Origin: an uncultured bacterium
GTDB lineage: Bacteria > CAIWAD01
Reading direction: 5' to 3'
Assembly (NCBI GenBank): GCA_903910645.1
Contig: CAIWAD010000113.1
Span: forward strand, 45,564-109,563
Length of the DNA stretch: 64,000 bases
Shown: positions 4,599 to 20,783 of the stretch, in pieces
Numbering within the stretch: the first letter of the stretch is position 1
Layout: the number at the start of each line of letters is the position of its first letter
Notes under the pieces: generated by a model
Databases searched by the model: none
Told to the model about the DNA's origin: nothing
What the model saw: only the letters and a program-made list of their open reading frames with translations
Position numbers and translations under genes: made by a program

Positions 4599-6116
4599 CT
4601 ACTGGTTCAGGTAGTTCAGGGCGTTGGTCAGCAGGCTCTTGGCGTAAGCCGGGTTGTGCACACCCATGCTGCCGTCGTTCTTCACGAAGAGGTAGCAATA
4701 CACCGCTTCGCGCCAGGCCGTGTTGGTCCACTCCGGATGGAGGACGGCGCTGGTGAAAGTGGTGCTGGACAGGGAGTCCGTGGGCACCGTGAAGCCAAAC
4801 TGAGCCGTGAAGTAATCTTCAATCTGGCCCATGAGGTTCGCCACTTCCGTCTGGCCACCCACGCCGTTCACACCACCGAAGTCGATGTCGAAGCTGGTGG
4901 CACCATTATGGCAGCTCTGGCAAGCCGTCAGGCTGGCTTCGAAGCTGTGGTCATGAATGGTGTAGCCGTGCGGGGCGCTGGCTTCCATGTGACAGGTCAC
5001 ACAGGGATCCGGCACATTGTTGTGCATGGCCGTGCGGTTGTAGGTGAAGCCCGGGATTTCGTAGGAGCCGGCACCCAGGAACATGTCCATCTGGGGGGAC
5101 TCGTGCGGGCCGCGCAGCAGGCTGAACACGCCGCTGGCGTTGGAGAACACCTGGTCGTTCACATTGGTGAGCGTACGACGGGCGTGGTGGCACTGGGCGC
5201 ACAGCTGGCTGTTGGCACGACCGGTGAAGGTGGTGGCGGTGCCGCCGGCCGGAACATAGACCGTGCTGTAGTCGGCAACGGTGCGCAGCTGGGCTTCGTT
5301 GGTGCCATTGTGCGGGTCGTGGCAAGTGACGCAGCCAACCTGATTCAGGGTGGCGCCGCTCACAGGCGTGGTGCCCGTGTAGTCCGGATCGTAAGCAGCC
5401 AGGAAGCCCTGGGTACCGTGACAGGTCCAGCAGCTGCCACTGTTCCACTCAGCCGAGTAGTCTTCAATGGTCACGCCGGGATTCTTGCCCAGGTGGTCGT
5501 GGGCGCCGCCCAGCCACTCTTCCATCTGGCCTTCATGGCAGGTGGCGCAAGCCGCGTCGTCGCCTTCCGCCGGGTTGGTGGCGAAGGAGATCTCGGGGCT
5601 GTGACCGTACAGGTTCGGGCCCATGCTGCTATGGCAGGACTCGCACTGCACACCCTGCAGGGCATGCAGACGGGCGGTGTCCGCCTCGTCGGCGGCCGGC
5701 CAGAAGTCGTCATAGCCACCGTCGAACATGCCATGGTCCGTGATGGTGGTGTCGCCGTAGGCCACGGGGGCGTCCCAGCCCAGCGTATGGCACTGCAGAC
5801 AGTAGGGATTGTTGGACTGGCCAGCAGCCTCCAGGGTGGCGAAGGCATTGGGATGGCCCGTGCCCGTCCACTCCGTCACCGTCTCCGAGTGACAGGTGTA
5901 GCAGGAGCTTCCATTGTTACCAACCCAGGCCCAGGCGTAAAGATCTTCGCCGTCCTGTCCATTCTGACCGTCCTGACCGTCCTGACCGTCCGCACCAGTC
6001 GGTCCTGCAGGTCCAATGGGGCCAGCGGGACCAACAGCTCCATCCTCGCCGGCACAGCCAACCAGCATGATGCCGGTCAGAACCATTGCAGGCAGCGGTC
6101 GAAGCCACTTCTTCAT
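4599..6116 (-). CDS. Multiheme (9x CXXCH) c-type cytochrome lipoprotein with an N-terminal collagen-like Gly-X-Y stalk
   Basis: Signal peptide with lipobox-like LVGC, 10 consecutive GXY triplets (GPAGPIGPAGPTGADGQDGQDGQNGQDGED), and nine CXXCH motifs. RBS GGAGG 7 nt upstream of the ATG at 6116. Confidence 0.85.
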   Translation of the reverse strand: MKKWLRPLPAMVLTGIMLVGCAGEDGAVGPAGPIGPAGPTGADGQDGQDGQNGQDGEDLYAWAWVGNNGSSCYTCHSETVTEWTGTGHPNAFATLEAAGQSNNPYCLQCHTLGWDAPVAYGDTTITDHGMFDGGYDDFWPAADEADTARLHALQGVQCESCHSSMGPNLYGHSPEISFATNPAEGDDAACATCHEGQMEEWLGGAHDHLGKNPGVTIEDYSAEWNSGSCWTCHGTQGFLAAYDPDYTGTTPVSGATLNQVGCVTCHDPHNGTNEAQLRTVADYSTVYVPAGGTATTFTGRANSQLCAQCHHARRTLTNVNDQVFSNASGVFSLLRGPHESPQMDMFLGAGSYEIPGFTYNRTAMHNNVPDPCVTCHMEASAPHGYTIHDHSFEASLTACQSCHNGATSFDIDFGGVNGVGGQTEVANLMGQIEDYFTAQFGFTVPTDSLSSTTFTSAVLHPEWTNTAWREAVYCYLFVKNDGSMGVHNPAYAKSLLTNALNYLNQ

Positions 6117-7175: not shown

Positions 7176-7646
7176 ATGAAGAAGATCCTGGCCATCCTCA
7201 CCGGTGCCCTCGTGGTGTTCGCACTGGTTCAAAGCACTCCTGCCCTGGCCGGCGCCGGCTGCTGCCCCAAGGGCGAGAAGACCGCCAAGGCCTCCTCCTG
7301 CGGCGCCCCCGGTGCCGATGCCGCCCACGCCTCCAAGACCTGCACGGTGGACGGCAAAACCACCACCTGCACCATGAACGCCGATGGCAGCTGCAGTTTC
7401 CCCGCCGGCACGGTGGACCCCGCCACGGCCAAGGATGGCCTGAAGACCTGCGTGGTGGACGGCAAGACCGTCACCTGCAAGGTGAGCGCCGACGGCTCCT
7501 GCAGCATGAAGGGCGCCGAGGCTTGCCACGGTGCCGCCGCTGCCGCCAAGGGTTCCTGCTCCATGCCCTGCACCCCCGGCGCCGGCTGCCCGAGCAAGGC
7601 CGCCAAGGCCGTGAACAAGGATCCTTTCAAGGCCAGCGGCCTCTGA
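7176..7646 (+). CDS. Secreted Cys-rich protein (15 Cys) with a duplicated ~22-aa module
   Basis: Signal peptide MKKILAILTGALVVFALVQSTPALA. Repeats KTCTVDGKTTTCTMNADGSCSF and KTCVVDGKTVTCKVSADGSCSM, plus CC and C-x-C pairs. Confidence 0.6.
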   Translation: MKKILAILTGALVVFALVQSTPALAGAGCCPKGEKTAKASSCGAPGADAAHASKTCTVDGKTTTCTMNADGSCSFPAGTVDPATAKDGLKTCVVDGKTVTCKVSADGSCSMKGAEACHGAAAAAKGSCSMPCTPGAGCPSKAAKAVNKDPFKASGL

Positions 7647-7852: not shown

Positions 7853-8449
7853 ATGCAGGCAGTTGACCGCTTCCTTCGCGTAGGTCTGCCGCTGACCGTC
7901 GTGAGCGTGCTCATCACGGTCATCCTGGTAGGCTGGAACACCCAACCGGACCGCTACCACATTGGTTATGCGCCGGAGCAGCCCATTCCCTACTCCCACA
8001 AGGTGCACGCCGGGGACAACCACATCCCTTGCGAGTACTGCCACACGGGAGCCCGCCAGGGACGACACGCCATGGTGCCGGCGGTGGAGGCCTGCTTCAA
8101 GTGCCACAACCTTACGCGCACGGACAGCCCGCACATCCAGCGCCTGAAGGCCGCCCTGGATGCCGGCCAGGCCTTCCCCTGGAAGCGCATCCACGACCTG
8201 CCCGACCATGTGTACTTCGACCATCGGCCCCATGTGGGCCTGGGCATCGCCTGCCAGGAATGCCACGGTCCAGTGGAGACCATGGAAGTGGTGGAGCAGG
8301 TGCTGAACATGCGCATGGGCGCCTGCCTTGAGTGCCATCGCGGCCAGCGCCAGTGGTCCACGCCCGTGCCCGCTCCCCGGGCGGACATGGTGCAGGTGGC
8401 TTCCGGCCACCCCACCGGCCCCACCAGTTGCAATGCCTGCCATCGTTGA
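7853..8449 (+). CDS. actA: Alternative Complex III pentaheme cytochrome c subunit
   Basis: N-terminal TM helix plus five CXXCH motifs (CEYCH, CFKCH, CQECH, CLECH, CNACH). First gene of the actABCDEF cluster. Confidence 0.85.
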   Translation: MQAVDRFLRVGLPLTVVSVLITVILVGWNTQPDRYHIGYAPEQPIPYSHKVHAGDNHIPCEYCHTGARQGRHAMVPAVEACFKCHNLTRTDSPHIQRLKAALDAGQAFPWKRIHDLPDHVYFDHRPHVGLGIACQECHGPVETMEVVEQVLNMRMGACLECHRGQRQWSTPVPAPRADMVQVASGHPTGPTSCNACHR

Positions 8450-8476
8450 CATGAACTTCCTGGAGGTTCCGTGCAG

Positions 8477-8674
8477 ATGACGCACACCACCCGGCGACAG
8501 GCCCTGGGAACCCTGGGAGGCCTGCTGGCCGCCCTGGCGCTCTTCCTGGTGCCCGGCTCCAGTGCCCTTGCGGCGCTGCGCAAGCCGGCCGCCACGCCGC
8601 GGACATCCGCTCCGGCCAAGGGCGAAGCGCCCGTGGTCCGGCCGCCCCAACATTCGGTGAGCCGCCATGGCTGA
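8477..8674 (+). CDS. Small (65 aa) putative Tat/Sec-signal protein between actA and actB
   Basis: GGAGG 9 nt upstream of the ATG at 8477. Sequence MTHTTRRQALGTLGGLLAALALFLVPGSSALAAL... has a twin-Arg motif plus a hydrophobic helix. Confidence 0.35.
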   Translation: MTHTTRRQALGTLGGLLAALALFLVPGSSALAALRKPAATPRTSAPAKGEAPVVRPPQHSVSRHG

Positions 8675-11600
8675 TCACACCCCTTCATCGCCGCGCTTCT
8701 GGCGCAGCCGGGCCGAGCAGGCCGCCGATCCCGCCTTCCAGGAACCGCTGCAGCGCGAGTTCGAGCCGAACAGCGCCCACCAGCCGGAAGATCCCGCCGC
8801 GGGCATGTCCCGCAGGCGCTTCCTGGGCTTGCTGGGAGCCTCCGCCGCCTTGGCGGCAGGGGCCGCTGGCTGTGGCCGAAACATCGACCGCGGAGACATT
8901 GTGCCCTACACGCGCCGCCCGGAGGATGGCCTTCCCGGGCGTGCCATGTGGTATGCCACCAGCAGCGCGGAAGCCTGCTGGGTCTTCCCCTTGCTGGTGA
9001 AGACCCGGGAATCGCGACCCATCCTCATTGAAGGCAATGACAGCCATCCCGACTCCCTGGGAGCCGCCCCCATGCGGGCCCAGGCGGAATTGCTGGGCCT
9101 TTACGATCCCGAGCGCCTGCAGGCACCGGCCAAGGCGGGGGCCACGGAGTCGTGGGACAACGCCCTGGCCGCCCTGGCGTCCGGAATGGGCAAAGGCAAG
9201 AGCCTTCTGCTCACGGGCGCCGTGGTGTCGCCATCCCGCCAGGCCCTGCTGGAGCGTTTGGCCCAGAGCTATCCCGGCGTGGAAATCCACTGTTGGGAAG
9301 CCGCCGCGCCCCATGGTGCCCTGGCCGCCAGCCAGCAATTGGGCGCCGGCCAGTTGCTGCCGCGCCTGAACCTGGAAAAGGCCCGGGTGGTGCTCAGCCT
9401 GGAAGCCGAGCTTTTCGCGGGTGAGGGAGATCTTCCCCGACAGATCCGCGCCTTTGCTGCCGCGCGTCGGCCGTTGACCCACGGGGAGGCCACGCCTGAA
9501 GGCATGAACCGCCTGTGGGCGGCGGAATCCCGCATGACTTTGACCGGCGGCAAGAGTGATCATCGCCTGGCCCTGCGCTCCAGCGCGCTGCCCGCCCTGG
9601 CTTTCGCCCTGGCCCGCCGACTGAACGAACTGGGGTTGGCCTGGCCCGGCGCGCCGTTGTCCGCGCCCTCCCTGGCGGAATTCGCCAAGGCGGAAGGCCT
9701 GGATGGCAAGCTGTTGGAGTTATTGGCCCAGGATCTGAAGCAGGCTGGCCCCGCCGCCGTGGTGGTGGCCGGCAACCAGGGCAGCGCCGCCCTTCATGGC
9801 GCGGCCTTGGTGCTGAACCGCATGCTGGGTGCCGAGGGCAATACCTTCAGCTGGCGTCCTGCCGCCTTGCGCCCCCTGGCCTCCCACGCGGAAATGTCCC
9901 AGCTGGGCAAGCGGCTCCAGGCGGGGGAATTCGCCACCGTGGTGCTGGCCGGCGTGAATCCTGTCTACGATGGCCCGGCGGGGCTGGATTGGGCCAAGGC
10001 CCTGTCCGGCGCGGGCGAGCGCTTCCACCTTGGCCTTTTGCCCGACGAGAGCGCCGCCGCCTGCACATGGTCCCTGCCCCTGAACCATTGGCTGGAATGC
10101 TGGGGCGACCACATGGGCGGCCTCCTGCAACAGCCTGTGGTGGCTCCCCTTTACGACACCCGCGCCCTGGACGAAATTCTGCTGAACCTGCTGGCCAAGG
10201 GTGGCCAAAGCGTTCCCGCGGATGGCTTGTCCTGGCTGAAGGGGCTCTGGCAGGCTGAGTACGCCCGCCAGGGCAGCCCGCTGGCTTTTGACGCCTTCTG
10301 GCATGCCTCGCTACAGCAGGGCTTCAGCGCCACGGCCTTCCCCGCTGCCCCCGCGCCTGTTCTTTCCGCTGGCGCCCTCACGGCCTGGTCCGCGCCCATG
10401 GCCGCCTCCAAGCTGGAATTGACGCTTCATGCGGACCGCCGCCTCTTCGATGGACGCGGCGCCAACATCGGCTGGCTGCAGGAGCTCCCGGATCCCGTGA
10501 CCAAGTGCACCTGGGGCAATCCTTTGTCAATTGCCCCGGCGGACGCCAAGGCCCAAAGTTTGAAGGACGGCGACCGCGTCATGTTGTCAAGCGGCGCCCA
10601 GTCGCTGGAGTGCACCGTGCTGGTGCAGCCCGGCCAGAAGGTTGGCACTTGCGCCCTGGCCCTGGGCCATGGACGCACGGCCTTGTCGGTGGCGGAAGGC
10701 ATCGGCGTGAACGCCTTCACCCTGATGCAGGGCGGCGCCACCTTGCTGCCCAATGTGAGCCTGGCCAAGGCCACCACCACCGCCATGACCCACACCACCC
10801 AGGAACACCAGCTGATGGAAGGCCGCGACATTGTGCGCAGCCTGCCGCTGGCCTCCTTTGCCGCCGGCGAGACCGGCGCACCTTCCCATGGCGCCCACGC
10901 GGGTGGCCAAAGTGAAGGGAAGGGTGCTGAGCATGGTGCCGCCGCCGCAGCCGCCCTGGCCACGGGTCGGGACCATGGATTGAAACAGAAGGAAGAGGCT
11001 CCCCTGACCCTGTACCCGGACCACGAGTACCTGGGCCACAAATGGGGCATGGCCATTGACCTTAGCGCCTGTGTGGGCTGCGCCGGTTGCGTTATTGCCT
11101 GCCAGGCGGAGAACAACATTCCCACTGTGGGCCCAGAGCGCGTGGACGAAGGCCGCGAAATGCACTGGATCCGCATCGACCGCTATTACGAGGGCGATGA
11201 GGAGAATCCGGACATGGTCTTCCAGCCCATGTTGTGCCAGCACTGCGACCACGCCCCCTGCGAGAATGTCTGCCCGGTGGCCGCCACCACGCACAACGAG
11301 GAAGGTCTGAACCAGATGACCTACAACCGTTGTGTGGGCACGCGCTACTGCGCCAACAACTGCCCCTACAAGGTGCGCCGCTTCAACTACTTCAGCTACA
11401 CGGGTGAACTGGCCGCCGTGCTGCAGCTGGCCGCCAATCCGGAAGTGAGTGTGCGTCCTCGTGGTGTCATGGAGAAGTGCACGTTCTGCGTGCAGCGCAT
11501 CAACGAGGCCAAGAATCAGGCCAAGGCCGAGGCGCGCCCGCTGGTGGATGGGGAAATCAAGCCCGCCTGCGCGGTGGCCTGCGCCGCCGGCGCCATCACT

Positions 11601-11753
11601 TTCGGCGATTTGAACGCCGACAGCGAGGTGGCGCGCCTGTCCCAGGCCGACCGTCGTTACAAAGTGCTGGAAGAACTGGGAGTGAGGCCCGCCGTGACCT
11701 ACCTGGCCGAACTGCGCAACCCCCTTGCCGCCGGAGGCGCCCATGAGTCATGA
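8667..11753 (+). CDS. actB: Alternative Complex III subunit B (molybdopterin-oxidoreductase-like domain + 4Fe-4S ferredoxin domain)
   Basis: Tat motif [22 protein letters not shown], a large MopB-like region, and a C-terminal Cys-cluster region ([42 protein letters not shown]). The start could alternatively be the ATG at 8805. Confidence 0.9.
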
Positions 11754-13125
11754 GGCCGTGCTGGCCGAGATCCGGCCCAAGCCCCTGGTGGTGGGGGAAG
11801 TCAGCCTGGGAGCCGTGGACGATGCCGTCTACGCCCCCATGGAATCCAAACCGCCCATGGTGTGGTGGGTGGCCCTGGCCTTCACCAGCGCCCTCATGCT
11901 CCTGGGCTTCGCCCTGATTGGCTACACGTTCTACGAAGGCATTGGCGTGTGGGGCAACAACGACCCGGTCTTTTGGGGCTGGGACATCACCAACTTCGTC
12001 TTCTGGGTGGGCATCGGCCACGCCGGAACCCTCATCAGCGCCGTGCTCTTCCTGTTCCGGCAGCGCTGGCGCAACGCCATTGCCCGCCTGGCGGAGGCCA
12101 TGACCATCTTCGCCGTGATGTGCGCGGCCATTTACCCCGCCATCCATGTGGGCAGGCCCTGGTTCGCCTTCTGGCTCTTCCCCTATCCCAACCAGCGCGG
12201 CATGTGGATCAATTTCAACAGCCCACTGGCCTGGGATGTCTTCGCGGTGAGCACCTACTTCACCGTCAGCCTCTTCTTCTGGTATGTGGGTCTTATCCCG
12301 GACCTGGCCAGCGCCCGGGACCGCGCCACGGGCAAGGTGCAGAAGGCCGTGTTCGGCGCCTTGAGCCTGGGCTGGCGCGGTGCCGCCCGGCACTGGACCC
12401 ACTATGAAAAGGCCTACATGATCCTGGCCGGCCTGGCCACGCCGCTGGTGCTCAGCGTGCACAGCATCGTGTCCTTCGACTTCGCCACCAGCGTCATCCC
12501 CGGCTGGCACACCACCATTTTCCCGCCTTACTTCGTGGCGGGCGCCGTGTTCAGCGGCTTCGCCATGGTGGTCACCGTGCTGGTCTTCGTGCGCAAGATC
12601 ATGCGCCTGGACCACCTCATCACCCTGGACCACATGGAAGTGATGAACAAGGTGATCCTTACCACGGGCTCCATTGTGGGTTACGCCTACGGCATGGAGT
12701 TCTTCATTGCCTGGTACGGCGGCGTGCCCGCCGAGCACTATGTCTTCATGAACCGCGCCACGGGCCCCTACGCCTGGGCCTACTGGACCATGGTCAGCTG
12801 CAACGTGATCTTCCCCCAGCTCTTCTGGTTCCGCAAGATCCGCCGCAGCATCGTGGCCATGTTCATCATTTCCATTTTTGTGAACATCGGCATGTGGTTC
12901 GAACGCTTCGTGATCATTGCCACCAGCCTGCACCGGGATTACCTGCCCAGCGCCTGGGGCTACTTCCGCCCCACACTGGTGGACATGGGCATCTTCGCCG
13001 GAACCTTCGGCCTTTTCTTCACCATGATCCTGCTCTTCAGCCGCACCCTGCCGGTGATTGCCACGGCGGAGCTGAAAGCGGTGCTTCCCGGCGCGCAGCC
13101 CGGCCATGGAGGTCATCATGAGTGA
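11743..13125 (+). CDS. actC: Alternative Complex III NrfD/PsrC-like membrane subunit
   Basis: Polytopic membrane protein of the NrfD family. GGAGG RBS, and it overlaps the actB stop. Confidence 0.9.
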
Positions 13126-14299
13126 TCGTCCCTTCCTGGTGCTGGGCCTGTTCCAGGACGCCGACAAGCTGGTCCACGGCATTCGTGCCCTGAAATCGAC
13201 CTACGGCGACAAGCTGGAAGCCTACACGCCCTATCCCATCCACGGGATCGAGAAGGAACTGGGCATTCCAAAATCCCATGTGGGGAAAATCGTCCTCGCC
13301 CTGGGATTGTCGGGCCTGACCCTGGCCCTGGGTTTCCAGAGCTGGGTGTTCACCACGGACTACCAGATCCAGTTCGGCGGCAAGCCCTACTTCAGTTGGG
13401 CCAGCTTCGTGCCCATTGTGTTTGAAGTGACCGTGCTGCTGGCCTGCATTGTGGGCGCCGTGTTCGGCATGCTGGTGTTGGTGAACAAGCTGCCGCACTA
13501 CTCGCACCCCATCCTGTCCAGCCGCAGCATGCCCAAGATCACGCGGGACCGCTTCGCCCTGGCGGTGAGCGTGGACACGGCGGAGGACGCCGCCCGCGCC
13601 GAGGCCGCCCTGCGCCAGGCCGGCGCGCCGGAAACAGAAGTGGTGCACGGCACGGACGAAATTGGATCCGGCCCCTTGCTGCCGCTGAAGCCCGTGCTGG
13701 CCACGGTGATCATCTGCGTGCTGGCGGGTCTGGGCACCTGGCACCTGCAGCGGTTATGGAACAAGCTGCCGCTCATCTCCATCATGGATGAGCAAACCAA
13801 GGTGCTGCCCTTCCGCGCCAACGCCTTCTACCCCGACGGCCAGTCCATGCGCCCGCTGGTGCCGGGCACCGTGTCGCGCAGCGCCGAGTACGCCGCCTGG
13901 ACCACGCCGGAGGAAGCCGGTCAAATGCTGGTCAACCCCCTGTCGGCGGACAGCCTGACTCTTGCCAAGGGTCGCCGGGGCTATGAAACCCATTGCCTGG
14001 TATGCCACGGCCAGTTGGGCGATGGCACGAAACTGCTGAGCGACAAATACACGGGCGCTCCCGCCAACCTGCACCAGGCACGCTTGAAGGAAGCCCCGGA
14101 CGGTCACCTGTTCGCGGTGGTCACCGCCGGCAAGAACACCATGGCCGGTTACGGCAAGGACATTCCCGCCGCCGACCGCTGGGCCATTGTGCACTATGTG
14201 CGCGTGCTGCAGCGGGCCCTGGACGCCAGCGACGCCGATGTCCAGGCGGCCCAGGCCGTGGCTGCGGCCGCGCCTGTTGCCCAGGGAGGAAGCCACTGA
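13118..14299 (+). CDS. actDE: Fused ActD (DUF3341 membrane subunit) and ActE (monoheme cytochrome c)
   Basis: N-terminal half is ActD-like ([25 protein letters not shown]...). C-terminal half carries the single CLVCHG heme motif typical of ActE. It is one continuous ORF. Confidence 0.8.
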
Positions 14300-15450
14300 T
14301 GGGCAAGACCATGCTACCCAAGTTGATGGCCGGTCTGGGCCTGCTGGGCGTGATTGGCGCCTGGTTTGCCGGGGATTCCGCCCGTTTCAGCGCCAACTGG
14401 TTCGTGTGGAGCATCCTGCTCCTGGCCGTGGCCCTGGGTTCCCTGTTCATCGTTGCGCTGGAGCACCTGACCCGCGCCCAGTGGAGCATTGTGTTGCGCC
14501 GCGTGCCGGAACGCCTGTCGGGCCTCCTGCCCGCTCTGGCCGTTGTATTTGCCATTGGCGCGGCCCTGGGCCTTGCCGGGAATTTCGGTTGGTCCACCCC
14601 GGCCTTCCGTGAAGCCCTGGCCACAGAGCCCCACCTGCATGGCAAGGCCATCTGGTACAGCTCGCCCTTCTTCATTGGCCGTCTGGTCTTCATTTTTGCC
14701 GTGTGGCTCATGAGCTGGAAGCTCCTGGCCGGTGGCAGCATGAAGCAGGATGAGACGAAAGATCCGCGCTTCAGTCTTTTCGCCAAGCGCTTCAGTGCGC
14801 CTTTCATGTGGCTCTTCGCCATTAGCGTCACGGTGTTGACGGTGGACTGGCTCATGGGCATGAGCCCGCGCTGGTTCAGCACCATCTTCGGCGTCTACGG
14901 CTTCTCGGGCATCTTTCTGAGCGGTCTGGCGGCCACGGTGCTGGGCATCCTGCACCTGAAGAAGCAAGGCCGCCTCCAGGAAGTGCGTCCGGACCACTTG
15001 TACAGCCTGGGCGGGTTCCTGTTCGCCTTTACGGTGTTCTGGGCTTACATCGCTTTCAGCCAGTTCATGCTCATCTGGTACGCCAACCTGCCGGAAGAGA
15101 CCTTCTGGTTCCACACCCGCCTGACGGGTGGCTGGTACCCGGTCACCTTCATCCTGCCCATCCTGCGCTTCATCGTGCCCTTCTTCGCCCTGCTTTCGCG
15201 GGAAGTGAAGATGGATGCCCGTCGCCTGTCCCTCGTGGCGGTGCTGGTGCTGGTGGGCCAGGCCCTGGACCTGTACTGGCTGATTGTCCCGGAACTGGGT
15301 CGTGGCGTGCTCTTCGGCTGGCAGGAAGTGGCCTTCGGCCTCTTCTTCACGGGCCTGGGACTTAGCCTGGCGGAAGCCCGCATGAATGTGGGCAAGGACC
15401 TGCCGGAAGGCGACCCCAATCTGGACGCCAGTCTTCATTATCACCTGTAG
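14299..15450 (+). CDS. actF: Alternative Complex III second NrfD-like membrane subunit
   Basis: Polytopic membrane protein paralogous to ActC. GGAGGA RBS, and TGATG overlap with actDE. Confidence 0.85.
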   Translation: MGKTMLPKLMAGLGLLGVIGAWFAGDSARFSANWFVWSILLLAVALGSLFIVALEHLTRAQWSIVLRRVPERLSGLLPALAVVFAIGAALGLAGNFGWSTPAFREALATEPHLHGKAIWYSSPFFIGRLVFIFAVWLMSWKLLAGGSMKQDETKDPRFSLFAKRFSAPFMWLFAISVTVLTVDWLMGMSPRWFSTIFGVYGFSGIFLSGLAATVLGILHLKKQGRLQEVRPDHLYSLGGFLFAFTVFWAYIAFSQFMLIWYANLPEETFWFHTRLTGGWYPVTFILPILRFIVPFFALLSREVKMDARRLSLVAVLVLVGQALDLYWLIVPELGRGVLFGWQEVAFGLFFTGLGLSLAEARMNVGKDLPEGDPNLDASLHYHL

Positions 15451-15459
15451 GAAGCAGTC

Positions 15460-16335
15460 ATGGCGCAACCTGAACGCAACAGCATTCTCCCCACCCTGGC
15501 CTGGAGCCTGGCCATCCTCTTGGCCATGGGCATCTTCTTCGGCCTGCTGGTGGGTCCGGCCCTGACAAAGGGCGGCGCGGGCACGGCCCACGGCTATCTG
15601 CCTCCCCAGGCGCCCACGGACCTGACGGAGTTCGATGCGGTGAAGGGCCGTCAGGCGCCGGGCATCAACCTGGGTCAGGCCGTGGCGGGTGATCCTGCAC
15701 TGAAGACCTGGGCCAAGGATGAATACGGCAAGATCTGCGTGGCCTGCCATGGACCCGCGGGCAAGGGCGATGGCCCCGCCGGTCTGGCCCTGCAGGCGCG
15801 CAACTTCACGCTGAACGAGGCCTGGAAGAACGGGCCCAAGCTCACGCAGATCTTCCAGACGCTGAGCAAGGGTTTGCCGCCCAAGATGCCCGCCTACGAC
15901 ACCTACACCCCGGCCCAGCGGCTGGCGCTGGCCCATGTGGTGCAGGGCTTCATGGCCTTCCCCAAGCCGGCGGCCAGCGCGGCGGAGGTGGCGGCCATGG
16001 ACGCGGAATTCAGTCTCAGCGCAGGCGTGCGGGATCCCGGACGCGTAAGCGTAAGTGTGGCCGCCCAGCGCGTGGCCCAGGAAAGTCAGGCCACAAGCTT
16101 GAATGTGGAGGCCCTGCCAGCCGATCTGCGCCATCTGGTGCGTCATGCGGCCAAGGCCGGCCAGACCCTGGTGGGCCTGAAGGGCTTGAGCGGCGCCAAT
16201 TGGACGGCGGCCCTGCATGCGGGAGCACCGGCCAACGGCTTCTCTCCGGCGGTGGGGGCTCTGGGCGGCGCCGATTGGCAGCGTTTGAACGCGGCCCTGG
16301 CGGTGGCCACCCAGGCCGGCACCAGCACCAACTAG
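15460..16335 (+). CDS. Membrane-anchored class I monoheme cytochrome c
   Basis: N-terminal TM helix and one CVACHG motif. Sits between the ACIII and oxidase modules, so it is the likely electron carrier. Confidence 0.7.
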   Translation: MAQPERNSILPTLAWSLAILLAMGIFFGLLVGPALTKGGAGTAHGYLPPQAPTDLTEFDAVKGRQAPGINLGQAVAGDPALKTWAKDEYGKICVACHGPAGKGDGPAGLALQARNFTLNEAWKNGPKLTQIFQTLSKGLPPKMPAYDTYTPAQRLALAHVVQGFMAFPKPAASAAEVAAMDAEFSLSAGVRDPGRVSVSVAAQRVAQESQATSLNVEALPADLRHLVRHAAKAGQTLVGLKGLSGANWTAALHAGAPANGFSPAVGALGGADWQRLNAALAVATQAGTSTN

Positions 16336-16376: not shown

Positions 16377-16436
16377 CCTGCCTCGCAAGTTCGTCTGGAC
16401 TAAGTTTGTTGATTGAATAACAAGTCAGGAGAACCC

Positions 16437-17306
16437 ATGGCCCCTTCCCCCCCTTTCCGACGATGGGTGCCCATCGTCCTGTTGGTGGCCAGCCTTGCCG
16501 CCTTCCCAGCCCGGGCCGCGCAGCCCGCGGCGGAGGAGGACAAGGCCGGCGTGTTTTTCGATGAGCATCTGGGACAGGTCCTGCCCGGCGATGTGTTGCT
16601 GCGCGACGAAGCGGGCAATCCCGTGCGGCTGGACTCCCTGGTGGACAAGCCCACCATCTTGAACTTCGTCTACTTCGATTGCCCCGGCGTGTGCACGCCC
16701 CTGCTGAACGAAGTGGCGGACATCCTGGGCAAGACGGACCTGGATCCGCGCAAGGAGCCCTTCCAGATCCTGACGGTGAGTTTCGAGCCCCGGGACACGC
16801 CGGAGGTGGCGTCCGAGAAGCGCGCCAATTATCTGGCCATGCTCAGCCGCCCCCTGCCCCAGGAGAGCTGGCGCTTCCTGACCGGCGACGCGGAACCGCT
16901 GGCGCGCCTCACCAAGGCCGCGGGCTTTTCCTACAAGAAGGCCGGCTTTGAATATGTGCATCCCGGCGGGCTCATCCTGCTGGCGCCAGACCGCACCATT
17001 GTGCGCTATCTCTACGGCACCAAGTTCCTGCCCTTCGATTTCAAGATGGGCATCGCCGAAGCCGCAAAGGGACATGTGCTTCCCACCACGGCACGCCTGC
17101 TCACCATCTGCTTCAGCTACGACCCCGAGGGCCGCACCTATGTCTTCAACACCATGCGCGTGGTGGGCAGCAGCATGCTGCTGACGGTGGGCCTCTTCGC
17201 CGGCTTCCTGGCGGTCACCCAGAAGCGCGGCAGCCGTGGCCTGGGCCGCAAAGCCCGCCAGGACAACACAGCAACCACCAGCACCCAGAATCGGGAGGAC
17301 GCATGA
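16437..17306 (+). CDS. SCO1/SenC copper chaperone (thioredoxin-like)
   Basis: CPGVC motif (FDCPGVCTPLLNEV), an N-terminal signal/anchor, and AGGAGA RBS. Confidence 0.85.
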   Translation: MAPSPPFRRWVPIVLLVASLAAFPARAAQPAAEEDKAGVFFDEHLGQVLPGDVLLRDEAGNPVRLDSLVDKPTILNFVYFDCPGVCTPLLNEVADILGKTDLDPRKEPFQILTVSFEPRDTPEVASEKRANYLAMLSRPLPQESWRFLTGDAEPLARLTKAAGFSYKKAGFEYVHPGGLILLAPDRTIVRYLYGTKFLPFDFKMGIAEAAKGHVLPTTARLLTICFSYDPEGRTYVFNTMRVVGSSMLLTVGLFAGFLAVTQKRGSRGLGRKARQDNTATTSTQNREDA

Positions 17307-18931
17307 CGGACAAGGCCAGCGGAGCCACCCCTCCGCGCGGATTTTACGGGCCGGAAGGCGGCGGGGGAGGTCTCCTCTCCTGGGTCTTCTCCACGGACCA
17401 CAAGCGCGTGGGTCTGCTCTACCTCTACTCGCTCCTGAGCTTCTTCGCCATCGGGGCCATCCTGGGCCTTACCATGCGCGCGGAGCTCCTGATGCCCGGC
17501 CAGCAATTGGTCAGTCCCCGGGTTTACAACAGTCTCTTCACCCTGCACGGCGTGATCATGATCTTCCTGTTCATTGTGCCGGGCATTCCCGCCATCATGG
17601 GCAACTTCATGCTGCCCTTGCAGATTGGCGCGGAGGATGTGGCCTTTCCCCGCCTGAATCTGGCCAGCTGGTGGGTGTACATGGTGGGCGCCTTCCTGGC
17701 CGTCACCAGCCTGTTCAGCGGCGGCGGCGCTCCGGACACGGGCTGGACCTTTTACGCGCCTTATTCCATCCGCACCAACTCCAATGTGAGCCTGGCCGTG
17801 CTGGCGGCCTTCATCCTGGGCTTCAGCAGCGTGCTCACGGGCATCAACTTCATCACCACCATCCACCGCATGCGGGCCAAGGGCATGGGATTCTTCCGCA
17901 TGCCGCTCTTCGTGTGGAGCCTTTACGCCACCAGCTGGATCCAGGTCATCGCCACACCGGTGGTGGGCATCACTCTGGTCCTGGTGGTGCTGGAGCGATT
18001 GCTGGGCATTGGCTTCTTTGATCCGGCGGCAGGCGGTGATCCCATCCTCTACCAGCACCTTTTCTGGATTTACAGCCATCCCGCCGTGTACATCATGATC
18101 CTCCCCGCCATGGGTGTCATCAGCGAAATCCTGCCCACTTTTTCCCGGCGCACCATTTTCGGCTACAAGGCCATCGCCATGAGCAGCATGGCCATTGCTG
18201 GCGTGGGCTACCTGGTGTGGGGGCATCACATGTTCACCACGGGCATGAGCGACACCAGCCGCGTGGTGTTCAGCCTCATGACCTTCCTTGTGGCCATCCC
18301 CACAGGCATCAAGATTTTCAACTGGGTGGCCACGCTCTACAGGGGCAGCATCAGTCTTGAAAGCCCCATGCTTTACGCCATGGCCTTCATCTTCCTGTTC
18401 AGCATCGGCGGCCTGACGGGTCTGGTGAACGGCGCCCTGTCCACGGACATCCATGTGCACGACACCTACTTCGTGGTGGGCCACTTCCACTATGTGATGT
18501 TCGGCGGCACGGGCATTGCCCTGTTCGCCGCCCTCCACTATTGGCTGCCCAAGATCAGCGGCCGCATGGTGAATGAGAAGAAAGCCAAGCGCGCCTTCTG
18601 GCTGGTGGTCATTGGCTTCAACCTGCTCTACTTCCCCATGCTGGTGCTGGGCATCATGGGCATGCCGCGCCGTTACCACGATTACCTGCCCATTTTCCAA
18701 ACGCCGCATGTGATCAGCACCATCGGCTCCTGGGTCATTGCCACGGGTCTTGTGCTCATGTTCTGGAATCTGTGGAGCAGCGCCCGCCGGGGCGCCCTGG
18801 CGGGGAACAACCCCTGGGGAGGCACAACGCTGGAATGGCAGACCACCAGCCCGCCGCCCACGCTGAACTTCGACGCCCCCGTCACGGTGACGGCCGGCCC
18901 CTACGAGCGCGGTGAAGGGAGAACGGCATGA
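17303..18931 (+). CDS. ctaD: Cytochrome c oxidase subunit I
   Basis: 12-TM heme-copper oxidase subunit I with conserved His ligands (e.g. GHFHYV, HHMF). ATGA overlap with sco1. Confidence 0.95.
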   Translation: MTDKASGATPPRGFYGPEGGGGGLLSWVFSTDHKRVGLLYLYSLLSFFAIGAILGLTMRAELLMPGQQLVSPRVYNSLFTLHGVIMIFLFIVPGIPAIMGNFMLPLQIGAEDVAFPRLNLASWWVYMVGAFLAVTSLFSGGGAPDTGWTFYAPYSIRTNSNVSLAVLAAFILGFSSVLTGINFITTIHRMRAKGMGFFRMPLFVWSLYATSWIQVIATPVVGITLVLVVLERLLGIGFFDPAAGGDPILYQHLFWIYSHPAVYIMILPAMGVISEILPTFSRRTIFGYKAIAMSSMAIAGVGYLVWGHHMFTTGMSDTSRVVFSLMTFLVAIPTGIKIFNWVATLYRGSISLESPMLYAMAFIFLFSIGGLTGLVNGALSTDIHVHDTYFVVGHFHYVMFGGTGIALFAALHYWLPKISGRMVNEKKAKRAFWLVVIGFNLLYFPMLVLGIMGMPRRYHDYLPIFQTPHVISTIGSWVIATGLVLMFWNLWSSARRGALAGNNPWGGTTLEWQTTSPPPTLNFDAPVTVTAGPYERGEGRTA

Positions 18932-19554
18932 GCGACACCACCCTGGCCCATGGTGCACATGCTCCGCACAAGGACTACGAAGGCGCAAAGACGGGCATGT
19001 GGATCTTCCTGTTCACGGAACTCCTGCTCTTCGGCGGCCTGTTCCTGGTGTACTCGGTCTATCGCACCCTGTACACCCATGACTTCCACCTGGCCGCCGG
19101 GCACCTGAATGTGCCACTGGGCGTCACCAACACCTTCGTGCTCCTCACCAGCAGCCTGACCATGGTGCTCTCCGTGACGGCCCTGCAAAAGGGTGACCGC
19201 CAGAGCGCCCTGAACACACTGGGCTGGACGCTCTTCCTGGCCGGGCTCTTCCTGGTGATCAAATTCTTCGAATGGAGCGCCAAGATCGAGCACGGCCTCT
19301 ACCCCGGCTCACCCGTGCTGAAGTCCCTGCCCGCCGGCGAGGGCCTCTTCTACGGCCTCTATTTCGTCATGACCGGTCTGCACGGCTTCCATGTCATTGT
19401 GGGAATGATCCTCCTGAGCGTCATCGCCTTCCAGGTGAAGAGCGGGCGCGTCCACCAGGGAGACTTCGTGAAGCTGGAGAACGCGGGCCTCTACTGGCAC
19501 CTGGTGGATCTGGTGTGGATCTTCCTTCTGCCTCTTTTCTACCTCACCAACTGA
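18928..19554 (+). CDS. ctaE: Cytochrome c oxidase subunit III
   Basis: Subunit III-like membrane protein. ATGA overlap with ctaD. Confidence 0.9.
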   Translation: MSDTTLAHGAHAPHKDYEGAKTGMWIFLFTELLLFGGLFLVYSVYRTLYTHDFHLAAGHLNVPLGVTNTFVLLTSSLTMVLSVTALQKGDRQSALNTLGWTLFLAGLFLVIKFFEWSAKIEHGLYPGSPVLKSLPAGEGLFYGLYFVMTGLHGFHVIVGMILLSVIAFQVKSGRVHQGDFVKLENAGLYWHLVDLVWIFLLPLFYLTN

Positions 19555-19880
19555 TGGACGGCACCATGCACGACAATACCCATGCACATGGGGACGGCCG
19601 CACCGCGGAGCACGCTCCCCAGCCTTACGGGCTCTTCATCAAGGTGTGGGCGGCGCTCATGCTGCTCACCTGCATCACCGTGGGCGCATCGGTGAACTGG
19701 CCGGGCGCCGTGGGCACCGCGGTGGCCATGGCCGTTACGCCGGTGAAGGCCAGCCTGGTCCTGCTCTTCTTCATGCATTTGAAGTGGGAGCCCCCGGTGT
19801 TCAAAATCATGTTCCTCACCGCCGTGGGGCTGATGGCCGTGTTCTTCGGCCTCAGCTTCTTCGACTATCTCTACCGTTAG
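19554..19880 (+). CDS. Cytochrome c oxidase subunit IV (prokaryotic small subunit)
   Basis: 108-aa three-TM protein with FFMHLKWE-type motif, translationally coupled (TGATG). Confidence 0.7.
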   Translation: MDGTMHDNTHAHGDGRTAEHAPQPYGLFIKVWAALMLLTCITVGASVNWPGAVGTAVAMAVTPVKASLVLLFFMHLKWEPPVFKIMFLTAVGLMAVFFGLSFFDYLYR

Positions 19881-19889
19881 GAGCTCGCC

Positions 19890-20783
19890 ATGCAAGGAGT
19901 TTCAAGCTATTCCGGCATTGTCGATGGCGCCTTCTGGTATATCCTGGGCATCTCGGCCGTGCTGCTTGTTGGCATCACCATCGTGATGATCTGGTTCGCC
20001 TTCCGTTACAGCGTGAAGCGCAATCCCAACCCGGCCCAGATCCACGGCAGCGTGGCGCTGGAGACCCTGTGGACGGTCATTCCCACGCTGCTCGTGCTCA
20101 GCATGTTCTGGTACGGCTGGACGGGCTTCAAGCGCATGCGGGATGTGCCCCAGGAAGCCATGCTGGTGAAGGTGACGGCCCGCATGTGGAGCTGGAGTTT
20201 CGAGTATCCGGATGGCCGCCGCAGCCAGGAGCTGGTGGTGCCCGTGGGCCGTCCCGTACGCCTGGAGCTGCTAAGCAAGGATGTGCTGCACAGCTTCTTC
20301 GTGCCTGCCTTCCGCCTGAAGGAGGACGCGGTGCCCGGGCGCACCAACCACGCCTGGTTCCAGGCGGACAAGGCCGGCTCCTACGATCTGCTGTGCGCCG
20401 AGTACTGCGGTGACCAGCACAGCAAAATGCTGGGCACGGTGCGCGTGCTGCCGGATGCGGACTACGCCACCTGGCAGGCCAATCCTCCCGCCATGGTGAC
20501 CGGTCCGGAGCTGCTGGCCGCCAAGGGTTGCACCACCTGCCACAGCCAGGACGGCAGCCGCATGGTGGGTCCCTCCTTCAAGGGCCTGATGGGGCGCAAG
20601 GAGATGGTGGTGCAGACGGATGGGGAGAGCGAAGTCACCGTGGATGAGGCCTATCTGCGCCGCAGCATCCTGGAGCCCAAGGCCCAGGTGGTGAAGGGCT
20701 TCGACCCGGTCATGCCCGAGCAGCGTGACCTGTTGAGCGACGAGGAGCTGGACGAGATCATCAAGGTCCTGCAGGGCCTCTAA
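19890..20783 (+). CDS. ctaC: Cytochrome c oxidase subunit II with a fused C-terminal cytochrome c domain (caa3-type)
   Basis: CuA site H-x34-CAEYCG-x2-H, plus a C-terminal CTTCH heme motif. Confidence 0.9.
   Translation: MQGVSSYSGIVDGAFWYILGISAVLLVGITIVMIWFAFRYSVKRNPNPAQIHGSVALETLWTVIPTLLVLSMFWYGWTGFKRMRDVPQEAMLVKVTARMWSWSFEYPDGRRSQELVVPVGRPVRLELLSKDVLHSFFVPAFRLKEDAVPGRTNHAWFQADKAGSYDLLCAEYCGDQHSKMLGTVRVLPDADYATWQANPPAMVTGPELLAAKGCTTCHSQDGSRMVGPSFKGLMGRKEMVVQTDGESEVTVDEAYLRRSILEPKAQVVKGFDPVMPEQRDLLSDEELDEIIKVLQGL

Follow-up and report, generated by a model that had tools for sequence, protein, structure and literature searches.

Alternative complex III (ACIII) replaces the bc1 complex in many bacteria, and an act operon encoding it lies in the 64,000-nucleotide (nt) stretch of DNA analysed here (the window; contig CAIWAD010000113.1 of assembly GCA_903910645.1, positions 45,564 to 109,563, from an uncultured bacterium). 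The spacer between its actA and actB genes holds a 65-codon open reading frame (ORF) whose product begins much like a substrate of the twin-arginine translocation (Tat) pathway. Is this small ORF a gene, where does actB begin behind it, and what could so small a protein do in an ACIII operon? Comparison across related operons shows that the small ORF is a real, conserved and separately translated gene, which is under purifying selection, locked into the operon and uncharacterised.

A small gene between actA and actB

The initial annotation described an ORF of 65 amino acids (aa) that overlaps the actB ATG by 8 nt, and this arrangement is plainly present in the sequence (Table 1). Six distinct DNA versions of the ORF, from the window and five close copies, align without any insertion or deletion. 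The ratio of nonsynonymous to synonymous changes per site (pN/pS), pooled across the window sequence and its four divergent relatives (a single base distinguishes the sixth version), is 0.41 for codons 1–34, 1.06 for codons 35–53 and 0.17 for codons 54–65 in the ORF frame, vs. 0.97–3.4 for the conserved parts in the other two frames. Within codons 54–65, 7/10 variable sites fall on third positions. The Val61 codon, which lies inside the putative Shine-Dalgarno (SD) sequence of actB, varies between GTG, GTA and GTC; because this variation is synonymous, the constraint acts on the amino acid and not on the SD sequence alone.

GC-rich DNA such as that of the window (63.7% GC) is rich in long chance ORFs, 93 of at least 50 aa being found in 14 kb, which is the argument for a spurious frame; the composition of the small ORF is nonetheless that of a gene. 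Its GC content at third codon positions (GC3) is 0.83, compared with 0.84 in actA and 0.81 in actB. The difference between GC3 and the second-position value (GC3–GC2) is +0.185, where 198-nt windows of the neighbouring genes give +0.30 ± 0.15 in frame and –0.11 and –0.19 out of frame. Both values lie inside the in-frame and outside the out-of-frame distributions of the neighbouring genes and, together with frame-specific purifying selection, speak against the non-coding GC-rich DNA that the initial annotation had named as a refuting outcome.

A GGAGG or AGGAGG at the same spacing upstream of the ORF is kept in 5/5 distinct relatives, even in L005, where the spacer has diverged. The good ribosome-binding site reported earlier therefore stands as to its sequence, with its distance to the ATG corrected from 9 to 10 nt. 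An in-frame GTG two codons before the ATG (8471–8476) is an alternative start in a conserved context (GTGCAGATG), and L011 has an ATG at the equivalent place (4811–4816, reading MQMEPSTRR…). The protein could begin two residues earlier, in which case the GGAGG would be only 4 nt away.

Nineteen public contigs carry the protein exactly as encoded in the window, and the only name given to it there is “hypothetical protein”. Five homologues of 98–65% identity, all exactly 65 aa long, were recovered from 5.8 billion proteins, and about a dozen distinct homologues were found overall, with lengths of 58–65 aa and identities down to 43%, a depth of conservation that argues against a spurious frame. 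The source names of the closest ActB and ORF relatives point to Candidatus Delongbacteria, and we refer to these ORFs as the Delongbacteria type. A profile of the six closest ORFs yielded only 3 matches among 1.84 billion representatives, so this type is rare. Metagenome contigs scanned with the ORF alignment yielded 3 loci, including one duplicate, and a scan of genome contigs with the N-terminal third of ActB found nothing.

At loci L001–L009 and L011–L014, whose ActB is 57–82% identical to that of the window, the small ORF lies directly 5′ of actB with an overlap of the 8-nt type, and actA lies upstream wherever the contig reaches; actA is syntenic at all related loci. The conservation check proposed in the initial annotation thus holds even where ActB identity is only 57–67%. 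The gene sits inside the act operon and is co-inherited with it at all Delongbacteria-type loci except L010, a truncated contig that ends before actB and was excluded from flank counts. In a neighbour-joining tree of 89 ActBs, the Delongbacteria-type ORF-bearing operons form one clade (6/6), to which L015 is sister. L015 is the next-closest operon examined (ActB 49%) and has no small ORF, its actA and actB being 11 nt apart.

More distant operons were drawn from a profile scan of GTDB genome contigs with an ActB alignment, in which 80 ACIII loci were examined among the matches listed. These matches have ActB identities of about 40% or less, contain no Delongbacteria genome and served as the ORF-less background. 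Among them, actA and actB in most of the 80 loci overlap or lie less than 80 nt apart, and the few larger gaps (L019, L044, L045, L051, and L092) are stop-rich, so the spacer as such is not kept open, which is hard to reconcile with a small ORF that is mere open spacer.

Five loci of this set, from Ignavibacteria, Melioribacter, and Bacteroidota metagenome-assembled genomes, carry a 53–73-aa ORF in the actA–actB slot (L025, L043, L050, L059, and L061). These look-alike ORFs combine a K/R-R-R-x-F-F start (KRRSFF), a Gly-rich helix of the GGIAGGW type (GGIAGGWIAGNLF), a linker, and a V.V.INPLAV.R block; in Melioribacter sp. Ez-97, from a cultured ORF-bearing genus, the small protein is MERIYKRRKFFEIIGVLSLAGFIAGLLPKRFLKFKSNNKIKVSIHKDAVKRVK. 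The order actA–ORF–actB holds in 7/7 look-alike contexts examined, including L096 and L097, and the stop codon abuts or overlaps the actB ATG. The host genomes have 34–44% GC, and in DNA this AT-rich such open frames are unlikely to arise by chance (probability 0.006–0.04 per frame). Three pairs have a pairwise pN/pS of 0.43–0.54, and the most divergent pair reaches 0.84. A profile search gave 75 clusters, which divide into about 12 with Delongbacteria-type and about 63 with look-alike ORFs, all 53–89 aa long and all “hypothetical protein” wherever source names are given. In the M. roseus genome paper, ACIII is assigned to Mros0045 (actA) to Mros0040 with actB as Mros0044, and no gene is annotated in the spacer. 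The later M. roseus proteomics likewise lists no locus tag between these two genes; with the ORF unannotated, it could not have detected the small protein.

A single family comprising both types was considered and set aside, as homology is not demonstrable, and the two types are kept apart. Alignment of the Delongbacteria-type and look-alike profiles with hhalign gave a probability of 20%, at the N-terminus only; a hidden Markov model (HMM) of the look-alike type ranked the small ORF 8th among 1056 ORF segments of the window (E = 11); and the ActB tree does not place the two ORF-bearing host clades as sisters. What the two types have in common is their position and size, their architecture and a V-R-x4-(A/S)-V-x-R pattern. 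The look-alike is accordingly treated as a positional and architectural analogue, which strengthens the case that this slot encodes something functional.

L052, labelled as an uncultured Hyphomicrobiales, has an ActB that nests within the Ignavibacteria/Bacteroidota ORF-bearing clade. Its actA (2297–2866) and actB (from 2911) are separated by a 44-nt gap without a small ORF, for which a loss that followed horizontal transfer, or mis-binning of the contig, may account.

Because the small-ORF stop overlaps the actB ATG, the ATGGCTGA arrangement most likely leads to coupled translation of the small protein and ActB. The ATGnnTGA overlap is found at all Delongbacteria-type loci as well as at L050 and L097. 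In L025 and L096 the overlap is ATGGCGCATAA, and L043, L059, and L061 have gaps of 2–10 nt. A programmed frameshift fusing the small ORF to ActB was also considered; it is rejected by the stop codon, which is conserved everywhere, and by the 2–10-nt gap at three Ignavibacteria-type loci.

The actB start and its extended leader

The initial annotation regarded the actB start as ambiguous, since a canonical Tat signal appears only at residue 47, from an ATG at 8805, and the preceding stretch might be untranslated. The Tat signal is indeed present: a 78-aa N-terminal fragment of ActB scores 17.1 bits with TIGR01409 (cutoff 16.7 bits). ActB residues 9–53, which run into its twin arginine, match TIGR04519 (MoCo_extend_TAT, “TAT-variant-translocated molybdopterin oxidoreductase”) with 34.9 bits for the whole of ActB and 39.9 bits for the 78-aa fragment, vs. 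a cutoff of 20.6 bits, and the match spans profile positions 1–44 of 45. An alignment of 18 ActBs from many phyla shows that the leader (WRS…EF…) is kept and that R49, R50, and C69 are invariant. Published processing data agree, as the leader is translated and then removed in two organisms: mature ActB of Rhodothermus marinus lacks the first 74 residues (PMC5928083), and that of Roseiflexus castenholzii is cleaved at A71LA73 (PMC7439408).

The profile match, the cross-phylum alignment and the published N-terminal processing together make the start unambiguous. By these comparisons actB is shown to start at 8667, its first 46 residues being the known extended leader before the Tat motif; neither the ambiguity nor an untranslated extension survives. 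The two tandem Tat-like peptides seen by the initial annotation do both exist, but the second is the ordinary extended leader of ActB and the first belongs to a separate small protein. A long N-terminal extension of ActB is thus normal and should not be trimmed in annotation, which removes a false problem.

An observation that speaks for a later start comes from the 517-nt contig L010. At L010:440–448 (window 8666–8674) CAT GGC TGA has become CAG GGC TGA, so that H64 of the small protein is replaced by Q and the actB ATG by AGG; the contig is otherwise identical. The change may stem from an error in sequencing or assembly, or it may be a variant, which would force the use of another actB start.

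Anatomy of the small protein and its possible role

The small protein has three parts, which coincide with the three levels of pN/pS. The first contains an n-region (TTRRQAL), a Gly/Ala-rich helix with the pattern G11xxxG15xxxA19, a P26–G27 breaker and ALA at residues 30–32. The twin-arginine sequence is TRRQAL or TRREAL, with RR invariant in 11/11 Delongbacteria-type sequences; the uncharged stretch is 15–27 residues long, and P26–G27 followed by an AxA-like site is present in every member. The 19-residue Kyte–Doolittle mean is 2.15 for the window ORF, 1.96 for the Delongbacteria type and 1.27 for the look-alike, the last value being typical of weakly hydrophobic Tat h-regions; basic residues follow the look-alike h-region. 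The RR n-region, the hydrophobic stretch and weak, sub-cutoff matches to two models, TAT_signal and (in its signal region) MelC1, give the N-terminus a signal-like character. The h-region sequence is itself conserved, with invariant G11, L20, and L22 in the Delongbacteria type and GGIAGGWIAGNLF in the look-alike type, which suggests a retained packing helix rather than a disposable signal peptide.

The linker is free to vary in sequence and varies modestly in length. The last part follows the family pattern (V/A)R(P/A)P(Q/R)(H/N/G)(S/A)V(S/K/R)RH(G/A) and is kept in L011–L014 and L099. AlphaFold2 models based on family alignments give a helix at residues 6–24 (3–32 in the look-alike) with a predicted local distance difference test (pLDDT) score of about 80, followed by an extended tail; in both types pLDDT rises over the conserved C-terminal block. 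The net charge of the tail is about +5.

We favour, at a rough probability of 0.55, a reading in which the small protein, anchored or exported by its Tat-like signal, serves ACIII as a supernumerary subunit or as a partner in assembly. The initial annotation had suggested an undescribed ACIII-associated small subunit or anchor; a genuine, conserved and undescribed gene in the act operon is what stands of this, and we infer the physical association with ACIII, as we do export route, topology, cleavage and binding partner. The N-terminus would act as a Tat-type, or at least N-in, signal and would either stay as a signal anchor or be cut after the AxA at about residues 30–32. The extended C-terminal tail would then be on the periplasmic side, where the conserved C-terminal motif might dock on the periplasmic ActA/ActB module. 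The protein would thereby serve as a lineage-specific supernumerary subunit or assembly partner, for which the lineage-restricted ActH and ActG provide a precedent (PMC5928083).

Several features weigh against this proposal. The small ORF scores 13.9 bits with TIGR01409 (TAT_signal_seq), below the cutoff; the L013 ORF scores 13.8 bits, the other ORFs give no match, and there is no match to Pfam TAT_signal. The twin-arginine-like N-terminus and hydrophobic helix of the initial annotation are thus supported and “Tat-like” is a fair description, while “Tat signal” is unproven. A passenger of about 30 unstructured residues has no obvious need for Tat, and under the positive-inside rule the basic tail argues weakly against a periplasmic location, unless export is driven by Tat or by a partner. 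A look-alike subgroup has RK instead of RR. The overlapping SD sequence and ATG of actB place a constraint of their own on the final two codons (H-G) and on some of the C-terminal region, and the parallel between the two types may be convergence or an over-reading of a short motif.

The solved structures contain no sequence relative: when a profile built from 14 family members was run against every PDB chain, no ACIII chain was matched at E ≤ 10. Nor is the small protein described in the ACIII literature consulted. The ACIII entries (6F0K, 6BTM, 6LOD/6LOE, and 8K9E/8K9F/8X2J/9ILT) contain ActBs only distantly related to that of the window, and none of the four organisms with solved structures belongs to the ORF-carrying lineages, so unassigned densities in the existing maps are no test of the subunit idea. 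The sampled Rhodothermales and Bacteroidia, relatives of two of these organisms, have no ORF; the sample included no Chloroflexi operon.

A different role at the same complex, tentative and in our judgement unlikely, is that of a Tat escort or hitch-hiker, which would use its C-terminal motif to bind ActB that has folded in the cytoplasm and would be exported together with it, contributing a second RR signal or an anchor rather than acting as a passive structural subunit. Tat-like signals on both proteins and overlapping, coupled cistrons are what this would lead one to expect. The arginine motifs also show some reciprocity: ActB has SRKQFL (RK) and the small ORF RR in L025, L061, and L096, the small ORF has RK and ActB RR in L050 (KRKKFF) and L097 (GRKKFF), and RK occurs in both proteins in no operon examined. 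RK is present in ActB in 3/14 ORF-bearing vs. 1/76 ORF-less operons. However, the three RK ActBs form one clade and one evolutionary event, which makes the association anecdotal, and the reciprocity as a whole is suggestive but phylogenetically non-independent, representing one or two events; it was not accepted as evidence. In none of the ORF-bearing operons has ActB lost its full leader, the Tat motif or the lipobox Cys, and with its own signal complete everywhere it needs no carrier. MelC1, the apotyrosinase chaperone, is a Tat-signal carrier for tyrosinase, and the small ORF shows weak similarity to the signal region of its model, but the match is 17 bits vs. a cutoff of 120 and confined to that region. 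As a side observation, the ActB Tat motif of L084 is SRKGFL.

Taken further, and with as little confidence, the mini-protein could be an obligatory export or assembly partner of ActB in two deep lineages (Delongbacteria and Ignavibacteria/Bacteroidota), adding a second Tat signal or anchor, being co-translated and co-translocated, and binding through (A/S)-V-x-R. If true, this would be a new mode of Tat-dependent biogenesis of a respiratory complex, possibly evolved twice, and the reciprocal RR/RK pattern would be functional compensation.

It is less likely still that the gene encodes an exported or membrane mini-protein unrelated to ACIII structure, such as a periplasmic peptide or a helper of oxidase or haem/copper assembly, and is merely co-transcribed. 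The operon runs on into SCO1/SenC and COX1/COX3/COX2, so the partner need not be ACIII; but the gene keeps strictly to its place between actA and actB at each locus of the two types, and this position holds where the downstream content differs (the genes after actB look different in L096).

We give yet lower weight to an arrest peptide or monitoring substrate, whose signal would engage the export or insertion machinery while the C-terminal motif stalls the ribosome just before actB, so that translation of actB is matched to export capacity or the mRNA is brought to the membrane. Monitoring substrates have a similar layout: they are small secretory or membrane proteins in which a variable linker leads to a conserved C-terminal block, and their gene lies directly before the next one and overlaps it. 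RAPP-like motifs cluster near the C-termini of small secretory or membrane proteins upstream of functionally diverse genes (PMC12992588), and at the matching position the window has R-P-P, and L012 and P0127 (ARAPRH) have R-A-P. The arrest core is defined as R-(A/G/S/P)-P-P, RAPG or RAGP with Pro or Gly in the A site (PMC12992588), and this core is absent: the window has RPPQ (VRPPQH), L012 RAPR and the Ignavibacteria type INPLAV. RNA folding around the actB SD sequence and ATG revealed no structure beyond shuffled controls (z = 0.29), which weakens a SecM-like switch. A ribosome stalled 2–10 codons before the stop would presumably cover rather than expose the actB start, and with only about 25–30 residues from helix to motif, the signal would largely still be in the exit tunnel at the stall. 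The conserved h-region is also unexpected for a mere targeting signal.

Finally, that the small ORF is spurious in a GC-rich spacer and/or that actB starts at 8805 with 8667–8804 untranslated is already contradicted by frame-specific purifying selection, the absence of indels, the conserved SD sequence and the TIGR04519 leader, and is highly improbable.

The surrounding operon and comparison with known systems

The features of the locus and of its relatives are collected in Table 1. The actA product matches Pfam Cytochrome_C7 and Cytochrom_c3_2, and the nearest PDB relatives of the window ActB are the ActB chains 6F0K_B, 8K9E_B, 6LOD_B, and 6BTM_B. Downstream, the assignment covered ORFs of at least 150 aa, and all could be assigned: actC, an actD–cytochrome c fusion, a putative actF, a cytochrome c, SCO1 and the COX genes. 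The act operon and the oxidase genes form an ACIII–caa3-type supercluster. The 64-kb window contains 0 tRNA genes and 0 Rfam families at the gathering threshold.

Table 1. Positions of the small ORF, its flanking genes and the ORFs found in the same slot of other operons (window positions unless a locus is named).
Feature	Position	Strand	Description
Small ORF	8477..8674	+	65 aa + stop; ATG 8477, TGA 8672–8674; conserved “hypothetical protein”
Shine-Dalgarno GGAGG	8462..8466	+	10 nt before ATG 8477
Small-ORF residues 1–34	8477..8578	+	Tat-like signal or anchor (pN/pS, TIGR01409, Kyte–Doolittle, AlphaFold2)
Small-ORF residues 35–53	8579..8635	+	Pro/Ala/basic linker, sequence free to vary (pN/pS); no indels; disordered in AlphaFold2
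Small-ORF residues 54–65	8636..8671	+	Conserved C-terminal motif VRPPQHSVxRHG (pN/pS)
actB ATG/small-ORF stop overlap	8667..8674	+	ATGGCTGA, 8 nt
actA	7853..8449	+	198 aa, pentahaem cytochrome c subunit, N-terminal transmembrane helix, 5 CxxCH
actB	8667..11753	+	1028 aa; molybdopterin-like B1 domain and 4-cluster Fe-S B2 domain
ActB residues 9–53	8691..8825	+	Extended TAT leader (RFWRS…EF…) up to the twin arginine; TIGR04519
ActB residues 47–69	8805..8873	+	Tat signal proper with lipobox-like Cys; Met47 at nt 8805
ActD–cytochrome c fusion	13106–14299		Operon continuation
383-aa ORF	14299–15450		Taken as actF by position; no Pfam match
291-aa cytochrome c	15460–16335
SCO1/SenC, COX1, COX3, COX2	16413–20783		COX2 with C-terminal cytochrome c domain
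L011 small ORF			65 aa; …STRREMLGRLGGLLAGLALTLVPG…ARPPQHAVKRHG; ORF-bearing, ActB within the 57–67% group
L012 small ORF			65 aa; …ARAPRHAVKRHA; ActB within the 57–67% group
L013 small ORF			58 aa; …ARPPQGSVRRHG; ActB within the 57–67% group
L014 small ORF			59 aa; …PRPPQHSVKRHG; ActB within the 57–67% group
L099 small ORF			59 aa; …VRPPQNSVKRHG; ActB within the 57–67% group
Look-alike ORF, L025	L025:2790–3002
Look-alike ORF, L043	L043:2814–2975
Look-alike ORF, L050	L050:2742–2948
Look-alike ORF, L059	L059:2822–2986
Look-alike ORF, L061	L061:2740–2931
Look-alike ORF, L096	L096:6001–6240
Look-alike ORF, L097	L097:6001–6216

Just 5′ of actA lies an ORF of about 150 aa (7176–7646, +) without a Pfam match. 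Syntenic copies are found at L001:835–1299, L011:3507–3959, and L012:3474–3926, and an ORF of about this length precedes actA in every Delongbacteria-type locus that reaches far enough (L001, L002, and L011–L014; 230 aa in L007). At those related loci a divergently transcribed rubrerythrin-like gene lies 5′ of it. The ORF may be another uncharacterised operon-associated gene.

The export-signal-like N-terminus of the small protein and its tight coupling to actB are the notable part of this locus, the actB start being ordinary and already explained. An operon-locked mini-protein would add an ACIII component in at least two phylum-level lineages, and it is a further example of small proteins overlooked in respiratory operons.

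Among known ACIII proteins, ActH of R. marinus (Rmar_1979, in 6F0K) is a cofactor-less periplasmic protein without homologues outside close relatives; it has been proposed to stabilise the periplasmic ActA/ActB/ActE module, and it carries the locus tag Rmar_1979 and is not listed among the act genes (PMC5928083). It resembles the proposed role of the small protein in being a lineage-restricted ACIII accessory protein, but the latter has 65 aa, is encoded between actA and actB and consists of a helix with an extended tail; identity with ActH was rejected, as the profile finds no 6F0K chain. ActG, an ACIII protein of R. marinus and Chloroflexus, resembles it in being small and single-transmembrane, but actG is the last gene of the cluster (actABCDEFG) and does not separate actA from actB; ActG was rejected on gene position, not on sequence. 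We know of no twin-arginine N-terminus in ActG. It has been described as a seventh subunit, small, cofactor-less and predicted to have a single transmembrane helix, and it is absent from many act clusters and apparently non-essential (PMC5928083). The initial annotation was therefore right that small additional ACIII subunits have been reported, yet neither of these two corresponds to the small ORF in size and position, or by a 6F0K match.

Outside ACIII, TIGR02811 (“formate dehydrogenase region TAT target”) is close in kind, being a 66-position model named for a Tat signal and for the formate dehydrogenase region. Formate dehydrogenase and ActB belong to the same molybdoenzyme superfamily, and to our knowledge no function has been assigned to TIGR02811. 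The window ORF does not match this model, the best family member, the L059 ORF, scores 17.1 bits vs. 48.45 in the signal region only, and TIGR02811 is attached to another enzyme system. Across Pfam and NCBIfam, no small-ORF member has a match above cutoff.

Further parallels are found in signal anchors and supernumerary subunits. The N-terminus of the Rieske protein is an uncleaved RR-motif, N-in hydrophobic helix that stays as a membrane anchor, and tiny single-helix, operon-encoded subunits stabilise quinol oxidoreductases and oxidases, as do subunit IV of Rhodobacter sphaeroides bc1, CydX, and CcoQ. None of these is ACIII-associated or similar in sequence, and compared with signal anchors the passenger of the small protein is only a tail of about 30 residues ending in a conserved motif. 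A bc1 supernumerary subunit is mentioned in PMC10041115. The RAPP-type arrest peptides (SecM, ApdA, ApdP, and ApcA) share with it a small secretory or membrane protein, an Arg/Pro C-terminal block (PMC7897499, PMC10951233, PMC12992588) and a place directly before another gene, but what follows the small ORF is the gene of an export substrate rather than of the export machinery. The mini-gene between actA and actB is an uncharacterised case of an already known kind, the small accessory proteins that respiratory complexes carry in particular lineages.

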